DNA of 64,000 bases, taken from the IMG/VR virus record IMGVR_UViG_3300028615_000137, positions 1 to 64,000 of that record; one strand, given 5' to 3'. This DNA is from a virus. Below, one piece after another: positions 1 through 13,111 of the stretch (position 1 is its first letter; every line of letters starts with the position of its first letter). The notes beneath the pieces were generated by a model. It did no database searches. It had not been told where the DNA came from and saw only the letters and a program-made list of their open reading frames with translations. The translations under genes and the position numbers were made by a program.

Positions 1-244
1 TCGACAAGAACTTATCGAAAAGTATGAAAAGGGGGAAAGGGATTTTGAAGGGGTAGATCTCAGCTATGCGGATCTGGGTTACCTCAATCTCAAGGATGCA
101 AACTTCGACTGGGCAAATCTTGAAGGTGCAAATCTCGAGAATGCGGAGTTCAGATACACAAAACTTGAAAATGCGAATCTCAAGAATGCAGATCTTGAAG
201 GTGCCGATCTATACTGTGCGAACCTCGAAGGTGCAAATCGTTAG
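1..244 (+). CDS. Pentapeptide-repeat protein, 5' end outside window
   Basis: Manual translation from nt 2: RQELIEKYEKGERDFEGVDLSYADL...ANLEGANR*, stop TAG 242-244; same leader as neighbours. Confidence 0.9.
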   Translation, partial: RQELIEKYEKGERDFEGVDLSYADLGYLNLKDANFDWANLEGANLENAEFRYTKLENANLKNADLEGADLYCANLEGANR

Positions 245-372
245 CTGAACAATTACACTATAGGTGTAACAAATTTTAGACATTTTTCTCAGCTTGAGCT
301 TGCACAGTGGTTCCACTCTGCTAGTCTATATGTTGAGGCAAGGGAGAAAACAAAATGGAAAAGAAAATGACT
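239..372 (+). repeat. Intergenic cassette repeat type I, copy A (palindrome + promoter + RBS + start)
   Basis: cgttagctgaacaattacactataggtgtaa...agcttgagcttgcacag...gctagtctatatgttgaggcaagggagaaaacaaaatggaaaagaaaatgac; recurs at ~757, ~1380 and inverted at ~4936-5069. Confidence 0.95.
300..327 (+). promoter_or_regulatory. Putative sigma-70 promoter with extended -10
   Basis: TTGCAC-N16-TAGTCT preceded by TGn; same at 815-842, 1443-1470 and (-) 4980-5007. Confidence 0.6.
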
Positions 373-777
373 CGACAAGAAGTTGTACAAAAGTGTGAAA
401 ATGGGGAAATAGATTTCCGAGGCGCAGATCTCAGTGGACAGGATCTAAGCGGACTGGATCTAAGCGGAGTGGATCTCGAAGGTGTAAATCTCAAGAATGC
501 AGATCTAGAAGGGGCAGATCTCAGGGACGCAAATCTCGAGAATGCGGTTCTCAGGGACGCAAATCTCAAGGGGGCAAATCTCAGTTTTGCAAATCTCAGC
601 GGTGTAAATCTAAGGGGTGCAGATCTCGAAGGGACAATCCTTCAGGATGCGGATCTCAGGGACGCAAATCTTGAAGGTGCAATCCTTCAAGATGCGGATC
701 TCATCTGTGCAAACCTTGAAGGTGCAAACCTTGAAGGTGCGGTTATCTATCTTGGTAACAGGAAAATTACACTATAG
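355..777 (+). CDS. Pentapeptide-repeat protein
   Basis: Leader MEKKMTRQEVVQKCENGEIDF followed by A[DN]Lxx repeats; RBS agggag. Confidence 0.95.
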   Translation: MEKKMTRQEVVQKCENGEIDFRGADLSGQDLSGLDLSGVDLEGVNLKNADLEGADLRDANLENAVLRDANLKGANLSFANLSGVNLRGADLEGTILQDADLRDANLEGAILQDADLICANLEGANLEGAVIYLGNRKITL

Positions 778-876
778 GTGTAAACAATTTTTAGACAATT
801 TTCTTAGCTTGAGCTTGCACAGCGGTCAAAGGCTGCTAGTCTATATGTTGAGGCAAGGGAGAAAGCAAAATGGAAA
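757..876 (+). repeat. Intergenic cassette repeat type I, copy B
   Basis: ttacactataggtgtaa 767-783, promoter motif 815-842, RBS. Confidence 0.95.
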
Positions 877-1046
877 ACAACAGCATCATCGGCACGGTAG
901 ACTTCGAAGCGCTCAATCGCGAGATCACGAACTTCGAGCTTGCAAATGCGCAGTGGGAGGGTGATGGCGAACAGAACGAAACGGAAACTGAAATTTTGTT
1001 CACCATCGAGTTCAAGAGCCGCTTACGACACTCGGATAGAGGCTAA
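870..1046 (+). CDS. Small acidic hypothetical protein (58 aa) in a cassette slot
   Basis: ATG 870 directly after the conserved RBS; MENNSIIGTVDFEALNREITNFELANAQWEGDGEQNETETEILFTIEFKSRLRHSDRG*. Confidence 0.7.
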   Translation: MENNSIIGTVDFEALNREITNFELANAQWEGDGEQNETETEILFTIEFKSRLRHSDRG

Positions 1047-1064
1047 AGCCGAGCTAGAAGGTAG

Positions 1065-1385
1065 AGCAGCGGACTAGATCTCGGTGGGGTAGATCTCAAG
1101 GGTGCAAACTTTGAAGGTTCACTTTTAGATGGCGCAAATCTCAAGTGTGCAAATCTCAACCTTGCAGATCTCAGGTATGTAAATCTCGAGAATGCAGTTC
1201 TCAGGGACGCAAATCTTAGGGGAGCAGATCTCAGCGGTGCAAATCTCAAGGGTGCAGAAATCAGGGATGCAAACCTTGAAGGTGCAAATCTTGAATATGC
1301 AGATCTCAAGAATGCAGATCTCAGGTATGTAAATCTCAGCGGTGTAAAACTCAAGGATGCAAATCTAGAGGGTGCTGTCCGTTAG
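1065..1385 (+). pseudogene. Headless pentapeptide-repeat gene (open frame, no leader or start)
   Basis: [18 protein letters not shown]...ANLEGAVR*; in-frame TAG at 1062-1064 upstream, no ATG. Confidence 0.8.
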
Positions 1386-1511
1386 CTGAACAATTACACT
1401 ATAGGTGTAACAAATTTTTTAGACAATTTTCTTAGCTTGAGCTTGCACAGCGGTCAAAGGCTGCTAGTCTATATGCTGAGACGAGGAGAAAATTTTATGA
1501 AGAAAATGACT
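1380..1511 (+). repeat. Intergenic cassette repeat type I, copy C
   Basis: cgttagctgaacaattacactataggtgtaa (palindrome 1394-1410), promoter motif 1443-1470. Confidence 0.95.
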
Positions 1512-1772
1512 AGGCAAGAAATTATCGAAAAGTATGAAAAGGGGGAACGAGATTTCCAAGAGGTAGATCTTAGTGGAGTAAATCTAAGAGGACTGGATCT
1601 AAGCGGAGTAAATCTTGAAAATGCGGATCTCAAGAATGCAGATCTAGAAGGGGCAAATCTCAAGAATGCAGATCTAGAAGGGGCAAATCTCAGGTATGCA
1701 AATCTCAGGTATGCAAATCTTGAAGGCGCAAATCTACAAGATGCAAATCTTGAAGGGGTAATCTGGCGGTAA
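1497..1772 (+). CDS. Pentapeptide-repeat protein
   Basis: MKKMTRQEIIEKYEKGERDF + repeats; start moved to ATG 1497 after RBS aggag. Confidence 0.93.
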   Translation: MKKMTRQEIIEKYEKGERDFQEVDLSGVNLRGLDLSGVNLENADLKNADLEGANLKNADLEGANLRYANLRYANLEGANLQDANLEGVIWR

Positions 1773-1810
1773 CAGGAAAATTACACTATAGGTGGAAAAT
1801 GAGTAAGTAA

Positions 1811-2032
1811 ATGACAAGACTAGAAATTATAGAAAAGTATGAAAGCGGGGAACGAGATTTTCGATGGAAAAATCTAAGCGGAGTAGATCTAAGCGGAGTA
1901 GATCTAAGCGGAGTAAATCTGGAAGGTGCAGATCTAGAAGGGGCAAATCTCGAGAATGTGGTTCTCAAGGGTGCAGATCTAAGTGGGGCAGATCTCAGGT
2001 ATGCAAATCTAGAGGGGGTAATCTGGCGCTAG
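1811..2032 (+). CDS. Pentapeptide-repeat protein (short)
   Basis: MTRLEIIEKYESGERDF + repeats; same C-terminus (ANLEGVIWR) as previous gene. Confidence 0.9.
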   Translation: MTRLEIIEKYESGERDFRWKNLSGVDLSGVDLSGVNLEGADLEGANLENVVLKGADLSGADLRYANLEGVIWR

Positions 2033-2206
2033 TGGGGTCTCGCCTGGGTGGCAACTAGGGGATACTTGTAAGGAGGCTTAGACGGGCGTATGGAAGGCTT
2101 CACGCACCTGTTAGAGCGTCTTGGCAGGGGAGAATAACGCTTGAGTATACAATCGGGAAAACAAGGGGTGTGACATTTTGACAATTTGTGTGGTAGAGTT
2201 GGTGAC

Positions 2207-3007
2207 ATGAAGGGTCAACGAATGACGCCAAAAGAGTACGAGTTGTGGCTCCAGGCGTTCCGCGAATGTGGGGAAAATTGGTCGCGTGTAGCCCGTTGGA
2301 TCCAAAAGAGAGTGCCGGGTCGTGAGGCGACAACTGCTCAAGTTGTCAAGAGGGGTTACCAAAAAGGTTGGCCAAATCACGATGGTGATTTTCCCCCTAT
2401 TTTCGAAGTGTTAGCGGCTGAGACTGCGAAAGCGGAAGCCGAGATAGCGAAAAAAACTCGGCTAGCGATCGTGGAAGATGCGATAGCGGGCGATGCCGAC
2501 GCCATTGCACTCGCGCATGACTATCAGGTCCAAGCCAAAGCAGAAGAAGGCATTTTAGTAGGAAAAGCAAGGAAAAACTTGCTTGAAGTCATGGATTCGT
2601 CAAAAAATCTGCTAACTGGAATAAACCGATTGTCTGCAAGTGTTGGAAAACATTTGGAAAGAATGGAAATCGATTCCGATGATCCCGAAGGCGCCACAAA
2701 TGCGGTTCAGCTATTGTGGAGAGCGTCGACGGCCCTTCGAGCCGCTACGGCGGCAACAAAAGACGTCCTAGAGTGCGAGCGGCTTGTGATGAATAGGCCC
2801 ACTACAGTGGTCGAGCACCGGGTTGGAGCCAGTGCAACCACTGAAGAAACGCTCAGGCATATCCAAAAGAACTACGAGAATTCGATCCGAATGCAGGAAC
2901 GGATAGCCAGACGGGAGCGCTTGGAAGCCGAACTCGAAGAAAAACATAAGAAAACCTACATTGATGTAGAAGTGCTAGACACTGGAAAGCTTGAAGAAAG
3001 CGAATAG
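2207..3007 (+). CDS. Probable terminase small subunit
   Basis: N-terminal HTH-like segment, long helical middle, C-terminal ERLVMNRPTTVVEHRV...YIDVEV resembling TerS; start uncertain (2186/2207/2222). Confidence 0.55.
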   Translation: MKGQRMTPKEYELWLQAFRECGENWSRVARWIQKRVPGREATTAQVVKRGYQKGWPNHDGDFPPIFEVLAAETAKAEAEIAKKTRLAIVEDAIAGDADAIALAHDYQVQAKAEEGILVGKARKNLLEVMDSSKNLLTGINRLSASVGKHLERMEIDSDDPEGATNAVQLLWRASTALRAATAATKDVLECERLVMNRPTTVVEHRVGASATTEETLRHIQKNYENSIRMQERIARRERLEAELEEKHKKTYIDVEVLDTGKLEESE

Positions 3008-3049
3008 TTTCCAAAAGTCGAAAAAATTTGTAAACCTTGAGTTAAATCT

Positions 3050-3085
3050 TTGGCTTAGCTTGTGCATTAGCACATCATGTGCCAA
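3050..3085. promoter_or_regulatory. Imperfect palindrome of two facing sigma-54 (-24/-12)-like motifs
   Basis: + TTGGCTTAGCTTGTGCA 3050-3066; - TTGGCACATGATGTGCT 3085-3069; both GG-N10-GC. Confidence 0.45.
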
Positions 3086-3315
3086 ATTGTCTAAACTGTG
3101 GCAAAAAAGTCACGCAATTGCGCACCATGTAAGAAAGCACTTATGTGCAAATCTGCCATAGTACTTTGCCCATTTGTAGTACCATTACCCTACAAGTATA
3201 TCGATCCTCCCTAGGCTTATATACACCCAACTATGGCAGAAATGCACATCTTACCATACATGTATGGCCATTATGGGCCCTGGTAGGTGCATGTGTGCAC
3301 ATCCGGGCTTGATAC

Positions 3316-3352
3316 TTGGCACGAGCTTGTGCATTAGCAAGTTGTGTGCCAA
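3316..3352. promoter_or_regulatory. Second palindrome; sigma-54 consensus on - strand
   Basis: - strand TTGGCACACAACTTGCT (3352-3336) fits YTGGCACRNNNNTTGCW; shares agcttgtgcattagca with the first copy. Confidence 0.55.
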
Positions 3353-3708
3353 TTAGGTAACACCTGAAAAATGATCAAAAAAACAATTGCCTCCAGAACA
3401 GCGCCTGCTAGGATATAGGTATGACTAACGCAGATATTCATGTGTATCAGACTAGGGACGGCTGCTATAGGTGTAGGGTCACATATGGTAACACCACTGT
3501 GTACACTGGTAAACACATCACCCTATATGCGGCTGTGTGGAATGCTGCTAAGCTAGCAGAGAAGGGAAAGAATGGATAATATGGAAACTATGAAAATGAC
3601 TTGGGGTGCAAGAGTAGTGCCATTCTTGTACTAATGATACCTAACCCCGTAGCTCACCCCAAGCGGCGCTTGATAGCTTGTGAGATGTGAACGCCTGGTG
3701 ATGAAGTG

Positions 3709-3724
3709 TGTTTCACGTGGAACA
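3709..3724. promoter_or_regulatory. parS: parS site (chromosomal ParB-binding palindrome)
   Basis: TGTTTCACGTGGAACA; reverse complement TGTTCCACGTGAAACA equals the canonical bacterial parS 16-mer; lies in non-coding DNA. Confidence 0.8.
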
Positions 3725-3729
3725 TTCAG

Positions 3730-3793
3730 GGTAATCACTTACACTATCGTACAGTGTAGGTAATCACCCACACTGTGGAACAAGGTGGGTAAC
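3730..3793 (+). repeat. Degenerate 29-bp tandem repeat
   Basis: ggtaatcac at 3730 and 3759, ggtaac at 3788; units contain internal dyads. Confidence 0.6.
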
Positions 3794-3880
3794 TGTAGGT
3801 TAACGTAAGGTAATAACTTTTTTCGCCTACAGTTTCCCCGAATTGGGCTCACTCGTTTGCCCAGTGCAGGACCACACAGA

Positions 3881-3956
3881 TTTTTTTACAATTTTCTGAC
3901 AAAATTTGCTAATATACCACTAAAATCAGCTACAGAGATTTGATATTTTTTTTTTT
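3881..3956 (-). repeat. Intergenic repeat type II, copy 1
   Basis: tttttttacaattttctgacaaaatttgctaatataccactaaaatcagctacagagatttgatattttt identical at 4541-4615; first ~40 bp also at ~5605-5645. Confidence 0.95.
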
Positions 3957-3964
3957 ACAATTTT

Positions 3965-4006
3965 CTGAGAAAAATGTCTAAAAATTGTTTACACCTATAG
4001 TGTAAA
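3965..4006 (-). repeat. Partial type I repeat (palindrome part)
   Basis: ttacacctatagtgtaa 3989-4005 plus ctgagaaaaatgtctaaaaattgt. Confidence 0.85.
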
Positions 4007-4011
4007 TATCC

Positions 4012-4512
4012 TTAGCTATGGATGGTACCATTGAGATTTGCACCTTCTAGATCTGCCCCACTTAGATTTGCATGCTGAAGATCTGCAAACCTGAGATCTG
4101 CCCATTTGAGATCTGCCCATTTGAGATCCGCACCCTTGAGATTTGCGCCTTTGAGTTCTGCAAAGCTGAAATTTGCACCCCGAAGATCTGCACCTTCTAG
4201 ATCTGCACAGTAGAGAACCACACCCTTGAGAACTGCAAACCTGAGATCTACCCTTTCAAGATCTGCCCCACTGAGATTTGCACCCCTGAGAACTGCACCC
4301 TTGAGATTTGCCCCTTCGAGTTCTGCATTCTTGAGAACTGCAAACCTGAGTTCTGCACAGTAGAGATTTGCATGCTGAAGATTTGCTGTTCTAAGATCCA
4401 CTCCACTTAGATCTACTCCACTTAGATCTACTCCGCTGAGATCTGCACCTCGGAAATCTCTTTCCCCATTTTCATACTTTTCTATTAATTCTTCTCTTGT
4501 CATTTTCTTCAT
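4012..4512 (-). CDS. Pentapeptide-repeat protein
   Basis: MKKMTREELIEKYENGERDF + repeats. Confidence 0.95.
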   Translation of the reverse strand: MKKMTREELIEKYENGERDFRGADLSGVDLSGVDLSGVDLRTANLQHANLYCAELRFAVLKNAELEGANLKGAVLRGANLSGADLERVDLRFAVLKGVVLYCADLEGADLRGANFSFAELKGANLKGADLKWADLKWADLRFADLQHANLSGADLEGANLNGTIHS

Positions 4513-4540
4513 AAAATTTTCTACCTATATTGTAATTTTT

Positions 4541-4615
4541 TTTTTTTACAATTTTCTGACAAAATTTGCTAATATACCACTAAAATCAGCTACAGAGATT
4601 TGATATTTTTTTTTT
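4541..4615 (-). repeat. Intergenic repeat type II, copy 2
   Basis: Identical to 3881-3955, 660 bp away. Confidence 0.95.
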
Positions 4616-4952
4616 ATTCGACCTGGATAAACTTTTTGCCATAAATTATTACACGTACCCCTTCAAGGTTTGCATTCTTGAGAACTGCCCTTTCGAGATC
4701 TGCATTTTCGAGATCTGCATACCTGAGAACTGCAAAGCTGAGATCTGCATTTTCGAGATCTGCATACCTGAGAACTGCAAAGCTGAGATCTGCCCCTTCA
4801 AGGTTTGCGTCCCTTAGTTCTGCCCCACTTAGATTTGCGTTCCTTAGTTCTGCACCCTTGAGATCTACTCCACTAAGATCTGCGCCTCGGAAATCTCTTT
4901 CCCCATTTTCATACTTTTCTATTAATTCTTCTCTTGTCATTTTCTTTTCCAT
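4614..4952 (-). CDS. Pentapeptide-repeat protein
   Basis: MEKKMTREELIEKYENGERDF + repeats; internal 45-bp duplication (ADLSFAVLRYADLEN x2). Confidence 0.95.
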   Translation of the reverse strand: MEKKMTREELIEKYENGERDFRGADLSGVDLKGAELRNANLSGAELRDANLEGADLSFAVLRYADLENADLSFAVLRYADLENADLERAVLKNANLEGVRVIIYGKKFIQVE

Positions 4953-5069
4953 TTTGTTTTCTCCCTTGCCTCAACATATAGACTAGCAGCCTTTGACCGC
5001 TGTGCAAGCTCAAGCTCAAAAAATTGTCTAAAAAATTGTTTACACCTATAGTGTAATTGTTCAGCTAAC
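4936..5069 (-). repeat. Intergenic cassette repeat type I, inverted copy D
   Basis: Reverse complement of 239-372/1380-1511, with palindrome 5040-5056 and promoter motif 4980-5007. Confidence 0.95.
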
Positions 5070-5577
5070 GGAAGGCACCTTCTAGGTTTGCACCATTGAG
5101 ATTTGCACCTTCTAGATTCGCCCTTTCGAGATCTGCACCTTCAAGGTTCGCACCCTTGAGATTTGAATAGCTGAGGTCTGCAAACCTGAGATCTGCACCC
5201 TCTAGAACTGCCCCACTGAGATCTGCTCCCGCTAGATCTGCACCCCTAAGATCTGCATACCAGAGATCTGCATATTCAAGATCTGCATTCTTGAGATTTG
5301 CAAAGCCGAGTTTTGCATTCTCGAGATTTGCATATTCAAGATTCGCATGTCTGAGTTCTGCACCCTTGAGATTTGCATTCTTGAGATTTGCATTCTTGAG
5401 ATTTGCAAAGCCGAGTTTTGCATTCTCGAGGTTTGCAAATAGGAGATTTACTCTGCTTAGATCCAGTCCGCTGAGAACCAGTTCGCTTAGATCTACTCCA
5501 CTAAGATCTGCGCCTCGGAAATCTCTTTCCCCATTTTCATACTTTTGCACAACTTCTTCTCTAGTCATTTTCTTCAT
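5065..5577 (-). CDS. Pentapeptide-repeat protein
   Basis: MKKMTREEVVQKYENGERDF + repeats. Confidence 0.95.
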   Translation of the reverse strand: MKKMTREEVVQKYENGERDFRGADLSGVDLSELVLSGLDLSRVNLLFANLENAKLGFANLKNANLKNANLKGAELRHANLEYANLENAKLGFANLKNADLEYADLWYADLRGADLAGADLSGAVLEGADLRFADLSYSNLKGANLEGADLERANLEGANLNGANLEGAFR

Positions 5578-5653
5578 AAAATTTTCTACCTATATTGTAA
5601 TTTTTTTTTTTACAATTTTCTGACAAAATTTGCTAATATACCACTTTCTTTCC

Positions 5654-6166
5654 TTAGACCAGTGGTAGCCCCATAGTTTGTTGATCGCGGAAGCCGCCAT
5701 CAAGATTTGCGAAACTGAGATCTGCTCTTTTAAAAACTGCCCCTCTGAAATCTGCACCCCTAAGATCTGCATACATAATATTTGCATCCCTGAGATTTGC
5801 ATATTCAAGATTCGCATGTCTGAGTTCTGCACAATTTAGGTTTGCATACCTGAGGTATGCACGGCTAAGTTTTGCACCTTCTAGATTTGCATATTCTAGA
5901 TCTGCACGGTAGAGATTTGCACCTTCTAGGAATGTACCTTCAAGATTTACACGGTAGAGATCTGCAAGGTTGAGATTTGCACACTTGAGAACCGCATTGC
6001 TAAGATTTGCACACTTGAGAACCGCATTGCTAAGATCTGCATAGCTGAGATTTGCTGATCTAAGATCCAGTCCTCTTAGATTTACTCCACTAAGATCTAC
6101 TTCTTGGAAATCTCTTTCCCCATTTTCGTACTTTTGTACAACTTCTTTTCTAGTCATTTTCTTCAT
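5654..6166 (-). CDS. Pentapeptide-repeat protein
   Basis: MKKMTRKEVVQKYENGERDF + repeats. Confidence 0.95.
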   Translation of the reverse strand: MKKMTRKEVVQKYENGERDFQEVDLSGVNLRGLDLRSANLSYADLSNAVLKCANLSNAVLKCANLNLADLYRVNLEGTFLEGANLYRADLEYANLEGAKLSRAYLRYANLNCAELRHANLEYANLRDANIMYADLRGADFRGAVFKRADLSFANLDGGFRDQQTMGLPLV

Positions 6167-8792: not shown

Positions 8793-9009
8793 TTTCCTTC
8801 AACAGTCTGGCTCGCTCTTTCTTAGCTCCAATGTTCTTTCCGAGACGCTTGTCCAGCCGCTTAATCTGTTGCTTTGGAGTAAGATTATCGCGAACCTTCA
8901 TACGTTCTTCGTGTTCAAAGCGCTTTTGCTTTCTTTTATCTTCAGCGCGAACGTTACCAAACTTTGTCTTACGTATTTCCATTGTTAAATACCCATTCCC
9001 CTTCTTCAC
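8779..9009 (-). CDS. Small basic hypothetical protein
   Basis: LTPKQQIKRLDKRLG..GAKKERARL motif; start may be the internal Met. Confidence 0.65.
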   Translation of the reverse strand: MKKGNGYLTMEIRKTKFGNVRAEDKRKQKRFEHEERMKVRDNLTPKQQIKRLDKRLGKNIGAKKERARLLKEIENA

Positions 9010-9331
9010 CTTTAACCAAGAATTTTTGGTTTATATGTTTTCTTATCACAGATTTAACTAAAAGCAAGGCATAATTCATAGCTTCTTTATCATTTTTCTG
9101 ACCCATAAGAAACTCGGAAACTGCTGTAGTAACCAATCGCTTATAAAGTTCTGGAACATCTTTTTCAAAGATTAGGTAGATACCGTTGTCGTTATCAAAC
9201 CAAGCGATTGATATTTCGGGAATTTCTCTATCTGGATTTGTTACTTCGCTATAACAAGTTCCTAATTTCGAGTCCCGAATTATTGGAGCTCCAACGTAAT
9301 ATAGTGTAGGAGTTTTTTCTTCACTCGACAT
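8969..9331 (-). CDS. Hypothetical protein
   Basis: ORF track. Confidence 0.6.
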   Translation of the reverse strand: MSSEEKTPTLYYVGAPIIRDSKLGTCYSEVTNPDREIPEISIAWFDNDNGIYLIFEKDVPELYKRLVTTAVSEFLMGQKNDKEAMNYALLLVKSVIRKHINQKFLVKGEEGEWVFNNGNT

Positions 9332-9989
9332 ATTTAATATCCGAACGAATTAGCTTTGAATCATTTGCTATCGAATACAAAAAGTAATTTAAACAACCGG
9401 AACAAATTTCATACCCTTGATTTTGATATTTAAACATACGTCGAAGAGTAGATAAACCGAAAGTAATTTCGTTAATTACCATTCGCTTTCTGCCCACGTC
9501 CCAAAGTGTATAATCGCCCGTATGTAGCCTAAAGTCCGTAGGACCTTCCTTACTCAAAGCAAACTGACACAACGTGAAATCGAAAGTGTCCAACAAATTT
9601 TCTACGCAATCATAAAACCCAATGTTTATAAGTTGAATTTTATATTCTTTATCATAAAATGTTTCCGCTTCGTTTCCAATTAAAAATGTTGGTTCCTTTG
9701 AATGGGTAAATTTATAGGTAATTGCATGAGCATTTTCTTCAATCAATTCATGGCCCATTTTTTCAATGTTTTTCTTTAATTCATCAAATTGAACAGAATT
9801 ATGGCAGAAAAAGTCGATATCGCCTTTATCTAGCGGTTGTTTCGTAAGAAGACGTCTTAACAATCCTCCCGCTATCCAAGGACCTTCGTCGATTTTTCCC
9901 ACGTGTGGAAGATTTTCCAATAAATAGTACAATTCTACAAGATCAATATCACTTCTAGCACAAATTTCACTTAGATTATATGTCTGCAT
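9321..9989 (-). CDS. Nucleotidyltransferase (CCA-adding/poly(A) polymerase head-domain-like)
   Basis: WIAGGLLRR...GDIDFF and LLDTFDFTLCQFA motifs. Confidence 0.75.
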   Translation of the reverse strand: MQTYNLSEICARSDIDLVELYYLLENLPHVGKIDEGPWIAGGLLRRLLTKQPLDKGDIDFFCHNSVQFDELKKNIEKMGHELIEENAHAITYKFTHSKEPTFLIGNEAETFYDKEYKIQLINIGFYDCVENLLDTFDFTLCQFALSKEGPTDFRLHTGDYTLWDVGRKRMVINEITFGLSTLRRMFKYQNQGYEICSGCLNYFLYSIANDSKLIRSDIKYVE

Positions 9990-10106
9990 TTTCTTTCAAA
10001 TATTCCTTTACACAGCGTTCTATTTCTTTGCGACAAATTTTAAGAATAAAAGGTATGCTAAATCCTATTATCCCGACCAATACTAATGTATAAAATGTTT
10101 CGTCCA

Positions 10107-10313
10107 TCATAGTTCTATTTTTGGCATGTATTTTCTATACAATGCTTCTCCAATCTCTGCTTCAACTTCTTTCAATTTTTCTCTTATTGCATTTCTTTCC
10201 TTTTCGCCACGATTGAATCTAATCGCATCACCTTCTCGGTAATACCAATCGTGTCTCTTCAGAAGAGTTTCCAATTCTTCTATTTTTTCTTTATTTATTG
10301 ACATCCCTTGCAC
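10107..10313 (-). CDS. Hypothetical protein
   Basis: LKRHDWYY motif; coupled. Confidence 0.6.
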   Translation of the reverse strand: MQGMSINKEKIEELETLLKRHDWYYREGDAIRFNRGEKERNAIREKLKEVEAEIGEALYRKYMPKIEL

Positions 10314-10537
10314 TTACCAGGCTTAGATTGAAAGATAGCAGAACCGTCTGGATGTACAATAGAAATCAACTGCGGTTTAACATTTTCTTTAAAGTCTTGT
10401 TGCATTCTTTCTTCAGCTAATTCTTTAACACTGGGATAAGCATGCATTGCTTCTTCTGATAACAAAATGATTCTGCGCATATTTGACCAGGCATAAATCC
10501 CGTTACGTATTTCCCATATTGCTTTGTAATATTTCAT
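10295..10537 (-). CDS. Hypothetical protein
   Basis: ORF track, ATGA overlap. Confidence 0.6.
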   Translation of the reverse strand: MKYYKAIWEIRNGIYAWSNMRRIILLSEEAMHAYPSVKELAEERMQQDFKENVKPQLISIVHPDGSAIFQSKPGKCKGCQ

Positions 10538-11556
10538 TCGATCAAATGGGGGTGAGATTCCCGCGTGCCATTAGTACTTACTTTGACAAATTTAGCATTT
10601 TCTCTAAGTTGCGCTAAATCCGAGGCTCCGCAGTAGGACATTCCAGACCTGACACCGTCCATAATCGAATAGAGTACTTTACTTACTTTACCCTTATAAG
10701 GAACCAAAGTTTCAGCCCCTTCAATATGCTCAATCTCTGAATTGGCTTGTTCTTTGGAAGCATAAGAAGCACTTCCCCTATATATTTTGTACAATTTTCC
10801 ATTATGCTTTATTACATTTCCAGGAGTTTCGTCTGTACCAGCCAGCATCGAGCCTAACATAACCGCATTGGCACCCGCTGCTAGGCATTTTACGATGTCG
10901 CCAGAACTCCTAATGCCCCCATCGGCTATTATTCCGACTTCATGAGTATCTGTATATCGCCTTTCTTGGGCAATATCCAGGACACTTTGCAATGTAGGAT
11001 ATCCACATCCTGTTTGAATGCGAGTCGTACAAAGACTACCGCCACCGATACCTACTTTTACAGCAATTCTACTAAAATCGCTTTCTTCTATAGATTTAAT
11101 CAAAAATTTATAGGCTTCTTTAGTAGCAATATTGCCTACGATTACGTTTATTTTTGGAAAATTTTGTAGGATTTCTTTCAGAACTTTCAACGTTCGATTG
11201 CTATGGGCATGCGCAACGTCGATGCAAACCAACTTCACAGTATCACAACTATGAATTCTATCTATCCAATCATAGTCAATGCCCACTGAAATTCCGCACG
11301 TGCACATTGTCACTTGTCTTGCTTGTTGATCAACACTATTAAATCGATGAATAATGCCCAATCCACCGTGTGCATGCATCGTGCTTGCCATTTTCCATTC
11401 GCAAATAGTAGCCATGTTTGCGGCAATAATTGGCATCGTTACATGTATGTTGCCAATTCTCGAACTGGTATCTATATTCTTTCGACTTTCTATATCACTA
11501 CGGTTAGGAACCAATAGAACATCGTCGAATGTTACAGCTTCTGTCACACATACCAT
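10534..11556 (-). CDS. guaB: IMP dehydrogenase/GMP reductase family (no CBS domains)
   Basis: [53 protein letters not shown]; IMPDH versus GMPR not resolved. Confidence 0.88.
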
Positions 11557-11712
11557 GAAAATAATTCTTCCTTTTTTTCTACTTCTTTAGGGATATTATC
11601 GATCAAATTATCGTTTGCTTCTTTTAACGTGTCGCCAACTCCATAATATTTTCCTACTATGACGATAAAATTATTCTTTTCTGTGCTATAAAAGCTTTTA
11701 AAAATCATTCAT

Positions 11713-11922
11713 TCATTCTCCCTTCAAATATTCTTCGGCGGATTCGTACTGTATTTCGATGATCTGTCTAAAATATAGATAATCATTTTCCGCTCTACAC
11801 GAAAAATTACAGTTATCGCCATGACAATGACGTATTTCCCTATTATGCTGAGTCATTTCTGTTCCGTAATAATGACAACCGCACTTTGGACACGTGAACT
11901 CTAGATATTTTGAAACTTTCAT
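11713..11922 (-). CDS. Small zinc-ribbon protein
   Basis: CPKC...CH..C. Confidence 0.6.
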   Translation of the reverse strand: MKVSKYLEFTCPKCGCHYYGTEMTQHNREIRHCHGDNCNFSCRAENDYLYFRQIIEIQYESAEEYLKGE

Positions 11923-11956
11923 ATTATTTTTTTAGCAAATAACGAAAGTTATGCAA

Positions 11957-12502
11957 TCAAATTAACGAAATTAAATTTTCTACATCTCCGAAAAGTGCAG
12001 GAAAGTAATCCCATGCATCTACACCCACGTGTATACAATTTCCTTGTATCTTTTTCTTGCTGTGTGTGTGGCCGTGTATAAGCACTTCACCCTTGTTCTT
12101 TTGGGGTCTGCGACCTTCGAAGCGCTTATCTTTACTGTCTGGTAAATAGGGGAAATGGTTAACTCTGCAAGTTTTTCCACCTATGTTGGTAACAAATTCT
12201 TCCAAGACCAAATCGAACCCCATTTTTGCCATTCTGCTTTGACTGCTATCGTGATTGCCCCTAACCAATATTTTATAGCCATTTAATTTGTACATTATTT
12301 TGTTTTTGGCATAGTCTGGAGCACAAAAAAAGCAATCCCCTGTCCATACAACTACATCTTCTTTGCCAATTACTTGGTTATAACGAAAGATTAATTCATC
12401 TTCCATGTGCAATATTGTTGTAAATGGTCGTTGGCAAAAGCCAATGATATTGTGATGGCCAAAATGGGGATCACTAAAAAATGCTTTTATCAGCTTATTC
12501 AT
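11957..12502 (-). CDS. Calcineurin-like metallophosphoesterase
   Basis: SDPHFGH, GD, GNHD, HGHTH, VGVD; start moved to ATG 12502. Confidence 0.88.
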   Translation of the reverse strand: MNKLIKAFFSDPHFGHHNIIGFCQRPFTTILHMEDELIFRYNQVIGKEDVVVWTGDCFFCAPDYAKNKIMYKLNGYKILVRGNHDSSQSRMAKMGFDLVLEEFVTNIGGKTCRVNHFPYLPDSKDKRFEGRRPQKNKGEVLIHGHTHSKKKIQGNCIHVGVDAWDYFPALFGDVENLISLI

Positions 12503-12504
12503 GT

Positions 12505-12705
12505 TTAAAAAATATATGCGCTCAAAACACCTATAAAAGCGCTTTGTATACCAATTACTACCCAAAGCGCCATGAACCTATCTTCATGTTTTTCAGAAGT
12601 TTTCATATGCTCTTCTTTCCAATTTCTTAAATTGTTTATGCAATCTTCCAACAAATTAATTTTGACTTCCATCTTTTGCATTAGGGCCCTGTCTTCTCTA
12701 TTCAT
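12505..12705 (-). CDS. Hypothetical membrane protein
   Basis: Coiled coil plus C-terminal hydrophobic helix. Confidence 0.6.
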   Translation of the reverse strand: MNREDRALMQKMEVKINLLEDCINNLRNWKEEHMKTSEKHEDRFMALWVVIGIQSAFIGVLSAYIF

Positions 12706-13111
12706 TGTTTTCCTCTTTCGGTGGTATGTGTGCTAAATCGTTTCTGTTCAAATACTCTACACCCAATGCTCGAAATACATAATCGATTATAGATGTAGAA
12801 AATTTTATATTTTCATGCCCTCTGACAGAGCCAGAAGGCTCAAATCTTGTAAAGGTAAAATGTTCTACGAACGTTTCCAAAGGAACACCGTGTTGTAATC
12901 CTATTGATACGGCGCGTGTGAAACAATTGATCAATGATTGATCTACGTTTCCTTCCTTATTCACATTCAAGAAGATTTCCCCTGGTTGTCCAGTATCATA
13001 TTCACCAATAGTCAAAAATATTCTCCTATCGCCAATTTCAACTTCTTGAATATGACTATTGCGCTTCTTAGGCAATTTATGTCTAGTAGTATTTGGGGGC
13101 CCAAATTTCAT
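12698..13111 (-). CDS. Stand-alone C-terminal (TSCPD-type) domain of class II ribonucleotide reductase
   Basis: GEY..GQPGEIF..KEG, AVSIGLQHGVPLETFVEHFTFTRFEPSG, TSIIDYVFR. Confidence 0.85.
   Translation of the reverse strand: MKFGPPNTTRHKLPKKRNSHIQEVEIGDRRIFLTIGEYDTGQPGEIFLNVNKEGNVDQSLINCFTRAVSIGLQHGVPLETFVEHFTFTRFEPSGSVRGHENIKFSTSIIDYVFRALGVEYLNRNDLAHIPPKEENNE

Follow-up and report, generated by a model that had tools for sequence, protein, structure and literature searches.

A perfect chromosomal-type parS sequence in a myovirus genome without ParA or ParB: a possible docking site for host ParB

Does a phage that encodes no partition proteins use a chromosomal-type parS sequence to recruit the ParB of its host, or does this sequence owe its presence to something else? 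The question is raised by a 16-bp site at positions 3709-3724 of the window, by which we mean the whole stretch of DNA that was analysed (64,000 nt at the start of an IMG/VR virus record of 106,349 bp). The reading that we prefer, tentatively and on the strength of sequence comparisons, is that the 16-mer may be a genuine ParB-type parS, serving as a docking site for ParB supplied by the host chromosome or by a co-resident replicon. If the site is functional, a large myovirus without sequenced relatives joins those lytic-looking phages that carry a host centromere without its reader.

The parS sequence and its setting

The 16-mer TGTTTCACGTGGAACA (3709-3724) has the reverse complement TGTTCCACGTGAAACA, which agrees with the chromosomal parS consensus tGTTNCACGTGAAACa at 16 of 16 positions on the - strand. 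With no mismatch to this 16-bp inverted repeat, it has the sequence of a chromosomal-type parS, as the preliminary description of the window had stated. Markov models of orders 0-3 trained on the genome gave an expectation of 2.3-5.2e-5 perfect copies of this variant per genome, and of 0.8-2.2e-4 when all four consensus variants are counted. No second parS-like 16-mer with up to three mismatches was found across the whole 106,349-bp genome, which holds a single parS, and the next-best matches were half-sites. A half-site, GTGGAACA, occupies 3775-3782 on the + strand, 58 bp from parS and within the second unit of a 29-bp repeat, where a half-site-like repeat had been noticed before. Genome-wide (G000), GTGGAACA was counted nine times on the + strand, against ~1.9 expected copies, and never on the - strand. 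The + strand copies start at 3717, 3775, 42140, 59881, 61919, 65018, 78454, 102497 and 105843; in those at 105843 (CACGTGGAACA) and 78454 (ACGTGGAACA) the match continues into the parS core. This excess may be a codon effect or a weak enrichment of half-sites. Since the word is already present nine times on the + strand, its local repetition beside parS is only mildly informative.

The ends of the record share an exact terminal overlap of 91 bp and its start falls inside a gene, which indicates that the assembly is circular and its start point arbitrary. Tail sheath, portal and tape measure proteins mark the phage as a myovirus, whose replication genes encode SF2 and DnaB helicases, a primase, PolB, and RecA-like and SbcC-like proteins. 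The lack of parA and parB that had been reported for the window was extended to the whole phage, in which ParB_N (PF02195), HTH_ParB (PF17762), AAA_31 (PF13614) and CbiA (PF01656) had no matches at E<=1. A scan of the whole genome, as the preliminary description had proposed, thus returned one parS and no parAB. A tyrosine integrase is absent from the genome as well. The phage looks lytic, because it lacks an integrase and ParA and has a full replication set of its own.

The site is located where two transcription arms converge. The + arm, with almost all genes, extends from ~14.2 kb round the circle to 3007, and the short - arm runs from 13.9 kb down to 4012. parS lies in the 1-kb gap between them, in the ~16% of the genome that is outside long ORFs. 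This gap (3008-4011) had been described as the only long gene-free stretch. That is roughly correct for the window, where a crude ORF call shows no longer gap and puts one unsupported ORF of 52 aa in this one, but genome-wide it is second to the gap at 98214-99468. The 52-aa ORF (3421-3579, + strand) is preceded by an AGGA-type RBS and may be coding. Its resemblance to AP2-like binders was a visual impression and was rejected, as it had no family matches even at E<=5. The GC content is 0.46 in the core at 2-4 kb against 0.35-0.41 in the neighbouring - arm.

The right border of the gap is formed by the last pentapeptide-repeat (PRP) gene of the - arm (4012-4512, - strand; Pfam PF00805, 1e-52). 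PRP genes were arranged in inverted two-armed arrays at 1-2058 (+) and 4012-6166 (-) of the window, flanking the core, and the proteins of both arrays have the common leader MKKMTRxExIEKYENGERDF. Near-identical intergenic cassettes lie between the genes, and further copies were found at 97-106 kb of the genome. One such unit, an A/T-rich intergenic cassette of 75 nt at 3881-3955, is 100% identical to 4541-4615. The copy at 4541-4615 fronts the next PRP gene, and that at 3881-3955, turned towards the parS region, has no gene behind it. A sigma-70 promoter scan showed no enrichment.

Several other elements surround the palindrome. An iteron-like tandem array with a 29-bp period and 2.2 copies (GGGTAATCAC..., 3729-3792, + strand, TRF score 72) begins 5 bp past parS, and additional GGTAAY words continue to ~3812. 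In sequence these GGTAAY iterons are unrelated to the parS palindrome. The array is followed by an inverted repeat, GGGTAACTGTAGG / CCTACAGTTTCCC (3787-3838), with 13-bp arms at 3787-3799 and 3826-3838 that are complementary at 12 of 13 positions and enclose an A/T-rich loop of 26 nt. The arms were paired in both the MFE and the centroid folds, and the folding energy was unremarkable (z = -1.1). The parS palindrome is thus not an isolated word; with the 29-bp iterons and the inverted repeat it makes up a composite cis-acting region. Further upstream, a 29-nt direct repeat (AGCTTGTGCATTAGCA...TGTGCCAA, 86% identical) was observed at 3057-3085 and 3324-3352 of the window, in a non-coding stretch of 400 nt directly 3' of the terS-like gene and without an Rfam match. 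Rfam gave no matches over the whole of 1800-4200.

The neighbouring HTH/coiled-coil gene

The last gene of the + arm (2207-3007, + strand), which ends ~700 bp upstream of parS, encodes a 266-aa protein in which an N-terminal Myb/homeodomain-like HTH of three helices precedes a long coiled coil. It could not be assigned to a Pfam or PHROG family, and its own family has ~100 representatives at E<=1e-3. The AF2 model had a pLDDT of 88 and its matches to Myb/SANT folds were weak. In the one IMG/VR relative (L136) the homologous gene lies upstream of terL, at a distance of 1.9 kb, and a gap of 420 nt comes after it here too. The HTH and coiled-coil architecture and the place of the homologue upstream of terL agree with what is expected of a small-terminase gene beside a pac or cos site. 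Searches for a family or fold resembling known terS proteins gave nothing significant. The protein is a candidate small terminase or another site-specific DNA binder.

This gene gives rise to the alternative that a phage-encoded protein, either the 266-aa protein or another small binder, recognises the palindrome within a pac/cos or origin region, and that the identity with parS is a coincidence for a palindrome centred on CACGTG. We consider this possible but rather unlikely. A packaging or origin function stays in play because the surroundings are rich in iterons and adjoin a terS-like gene: 29-bp repeats and an inverted repeat placed after the site are typical of regions where terminases or initiators bind, and the probable host phylum seems to be without a canonical ParB reader (see below). 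However, a coincidental match to a foreign consensus at 16 of 16 positions is as improbable as pure chance. The iterons, moreover, do not resemble the palindrome, and terL is ~14 kb away in this genome.

The relatives of the gene do not share the site. A parS-like sequence (up to two mismatches) within 5 kb was found in none of 18 distant relatives, one from IMG/VR and 17 from metagenomes, which at 24-36% identity are too distant to refute the site. Neither was a parS within two mismatches found across the whole 89-kb record of L136. These absences count against recruitment of host ParB, and the lack of a similar palindrome near the gene in the 18 relatives also counts against a phage-encoded reader.

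Orphan parS sites across viral contigs

An exact scan recovered the parS 16-mer TGTTTCACGTGGAACA in at least 119 IMG/VR contigs, as opposed to two for the same letters reversed. ParB_N was absent from 48 of the 50 carriers tested, which were the longer contigs among the matches listed, and from 18 of the 19 carriers that were at least 90% complete. At 103 non-redundant loci, from which look-alike flanks had been removed, 38% of the parS sites fell outside any open frame of at least 100 aa, compared with 13% of positions drawn at random from these loci (~3-fold). The flanks of the parS loci were diverse and their GC content ranged between 0.26 and 0.73. Because the contigs with parS outnumber those of the control to this extent and most carriers are without ParB, orphan parS is recurrent in phages, and host-type parS without ParB is a selected feature of viral genomes. 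To our knowledge, recruitment of host ParB by a phage has been documented so far only for phi29. Given the size of this set of phages, recruitment of host ParB onto viral DNA looks like a general and little-studied phage strategy. A dense orphan array (L066, IMGVR_UViG_3300037518_000322, 116,662 bp, GC 0.65) had 11 perfect parS in locus 8906-12906, with eight listed sites within ~4 kb, in a 92% complete record with no ParB_N matches.

These counts also bear on the explanation that the site is a functionless accident, one of the few perfect 16-mers that ~16 Gb of scanned sequence is expected to yield by chance, in a phage whose host has no reader. Accidental perfect 16-mers do exist, as the two contigs with the reversed control demonstrate, and the present phage carries only one site. 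Nevertheless, viral sites exceed the control level by at least ~60:1, to which the non-coding position adds ~3-fold, so that an accident is unlikely unless the host lacks a reader. The expectation of 2-5e-5 per genome, the position outside long ORFs and the proximity of cis elements and of a second half-site argue in the same direction. The indications of a cyanobacterial host argue against a reader and in favour of chance.

The preferred reading, that host ParB docks at the site, draws on the perfect match and its low expectation, on the non-coding position in a phage without any of the four partition domains searched, and on the excess of the 16-mer in viral contigs, most of them without ParB and with a bias towards non-coding positions. 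It is also favoured by the precedent of phi29 and by the half-site 58 bp away. The parS search itself was validated on two Streptomyces genomes, in which 33 and 14 clustered sites were found, and on a Saprospiraceae genome with two perfect parS of the same C-variant as in the phage. On the docking reading, ParB-CTP dimers would load at 3709-3724 after injection or replication and would slide onto the flanking DNA. A partition-type complex might then form on the phage genome and couple the phage to the ParA/SMC machinery of the cell. The phage DNA could thereby be positioned or compacted, or handed on to daughter or dormant cells, in a manner like that of phi29 and Spo0J. The earlier proposal that the phage borrows host ParB is sustained as a general idea, by phi29 and by the IMG/VR excess, and is unproven for this particular phage, for which the particular purposes then suggested, namely SMC recruitment, a plasmid-prophage state and titration of ParB, are speculative.

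Host, relatives and known systems

The host is probably a cyanobacterium, with moderate support from the PRP leader and from low Shine-Dalgarno use. The N-terminal leader of the phage PRPs had matches mostly in filamentous cyanobacteria and also in Streptomyces, the latter being ruled out as a host by the phage GC of 35-46%. An SD-like 4-mer was present at -20 to -4 in 28% of the genes (ORFs of at least 80 aa), compared with 9% in the background, and such weak use suggests a cyanobacterial or a Bacteroidota host. Other approaches contributed nothing to the assignment. A GMP-reductase scan of genome contigs found nothing and a protein atlas search returned viral clusters only. The DNA of window 1-16.2 kb, compared with 401 cyanobacterial genomes, gave similarities at the level of tRNA, thyA and PRP and no spacer-like matches. 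HLR1 (RpaB) boxes, a cyanobacterial signature, were not enriched (52 vs 43 +/- 7.6).

Canonical parS is nearly missing from this phylum. A perfect site was detected in two of 201 sampled genomes, and in one of these (G134) it lies on a binned 11-kb contig of a phi29-like phage and was discarded as evidence on the host. None of the ten cyanobacterial genomes most similar to the phage genes had a perfect canonical parS. Allowing one mismatch, the same ten yielded two matches, both TGTTCCATGTGAAACA. We rejected TGTTCCATGTGAAACA as a cyanobacterial parS variant, because it is situated inside a conserved ORF of ~619 aa and is a coding coincidence. This word, one mismatch from parS, has a single copy in each of at least 12 large cyanobacterial genomes, and in six of them (L201-L206) it occupied position 1501-1516 of each locus.

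Candidate readers were similarly scarce. TIGR00180-class ParB did not exceed the cut-off in any of the five closest cyanobacterial genomes, and it was found in 19 of 81 genomes of the phylum, mostly as the N-domain only, often several per genome and on small contigs. The ParB-like genes in these 19 genomes were not accompanied by a perfect canonical parS. The comparison with the predicted host parS, which had been put forward as a check, thus leans against recruitment of host ParB, the best-guess phylum being almost without canonical parS.

A cyanobacterial host and a functional site could both be true if the reader were a ParB-like protein encoded on a host plasmid, or if the Myb-HTH/coiled-coil protein of the phage served, independently of ParB, to bind a centromere or packaging site. 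We regard this combination as distinctly improbable. It would imply a convergent use of parS or a hidden ParB-type reader in cyanobacteria. Orphan host-type parS is in itself already known, and the possible cyanobacterial host is the one unusual angle of this phage. If the site is functional, either the host assignment is wrong, and parS is then a clue to host range, or parS has a non-canonical reader.

The phage lineage is a singleton, without close relatives in the phage, IMG/VR, metagenome and 15-billion-protein collections. Megablast of 2-6 kb against GenBank phages gave no DNA match. In the IMG/VR protein scans, a neighbouring 200-aa gene had a best identity of no more than 37%, the portal had no relatives, and the tail sheath matched four short contigs, the best relatives being 51-53% identical. 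Against cultured phages, PolB and the tail sheath reached at most 31% identity, with unrelated phages. The parS-adjacent protein was a singleton cluster among 15 billion proteins, in a word-based search that returned only itself. Highly improbable is a relic, now unused, that was left over from an ancestral host or recombined in from a phage or plasmid whose host had ParB: the region is a recombination hotspot, flanked by mosaic PRP cassettes and 100%-identical 75-nt units, and the GC of the core is above that of the - arm, but an unused 16-mer should decay and this one is perfect, and neither the phage collection nor the adjacent protein pointed to a donor.

Docking of host ParB, the preferred reading, can be compared with several known systems. 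In chromosomes of bacteria, parS sites cluster near oriC, beside parAB. The phage site is identical in its 16-bp sequence to those of this ParB(Spo0J)-CTP system, in the C-variant of the Saprospiraceae control, but it occurs once, on a viral genome that has no parAB. The plasmid-prophages P1, P7 and N15 have genes of their own for ParA and ParB, and their parS sequences are not of the chromosomal type. They resemble the present phage in having a centromere-like site on a phage genome, and differ from it in their partition genes, since it encodes neither ParA nor ParB and has no parAB adjacent to the site. SGI1 is reported to hijack the ParABS of IncC plasmids (PMC10954446). It is a conceptual analogue only, a mobile element exploiting the partition system of another replicon in the same cell, and it differs in element type, partner and site sequence.

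The virulent Bacillus phage phi29 has five parS sites that are read by host Spo0J, helping the phage genome into the prespore (PMC2731898). The phage described here is similar to phi29 (and Nf) in that it looks lytic, lacks a ParB of its own and carries the chromosomal parS consensus. As in phi29, a host-type parS is found without ParA or ParB of the phage, but several sites distributed over the genome were not found. phi29 is distinguished by its five sites, its known ParB-bearing and sporulating Firmicute host and its experimental support, whereas the present phage has one site and a half-site, probably a cyanobacterial host, and is known from sequence alone. The single site, against five in phi29, counts against docking.

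Small phi29-like phages were also observed among the carriers of parS. Four contigs from IMG/VR sample 3300045988 (L048, L069, L080 and L093) and a fifth locus (L235, G134:C88:1-11300) are linear mini-phages of ~11 kb with a protein-primed-type DNA polymerase, a phi29-type packaging ATPase, an upper collar connector and a major head protein. ParB_N was absent from L048, the one member searched. L235 was assigned by binning to a cyanobacterial-phylum genome of 2.1 Mb. The mini-phages have inverted terminal repeats, with one or two perfect host-type parS near both termini.
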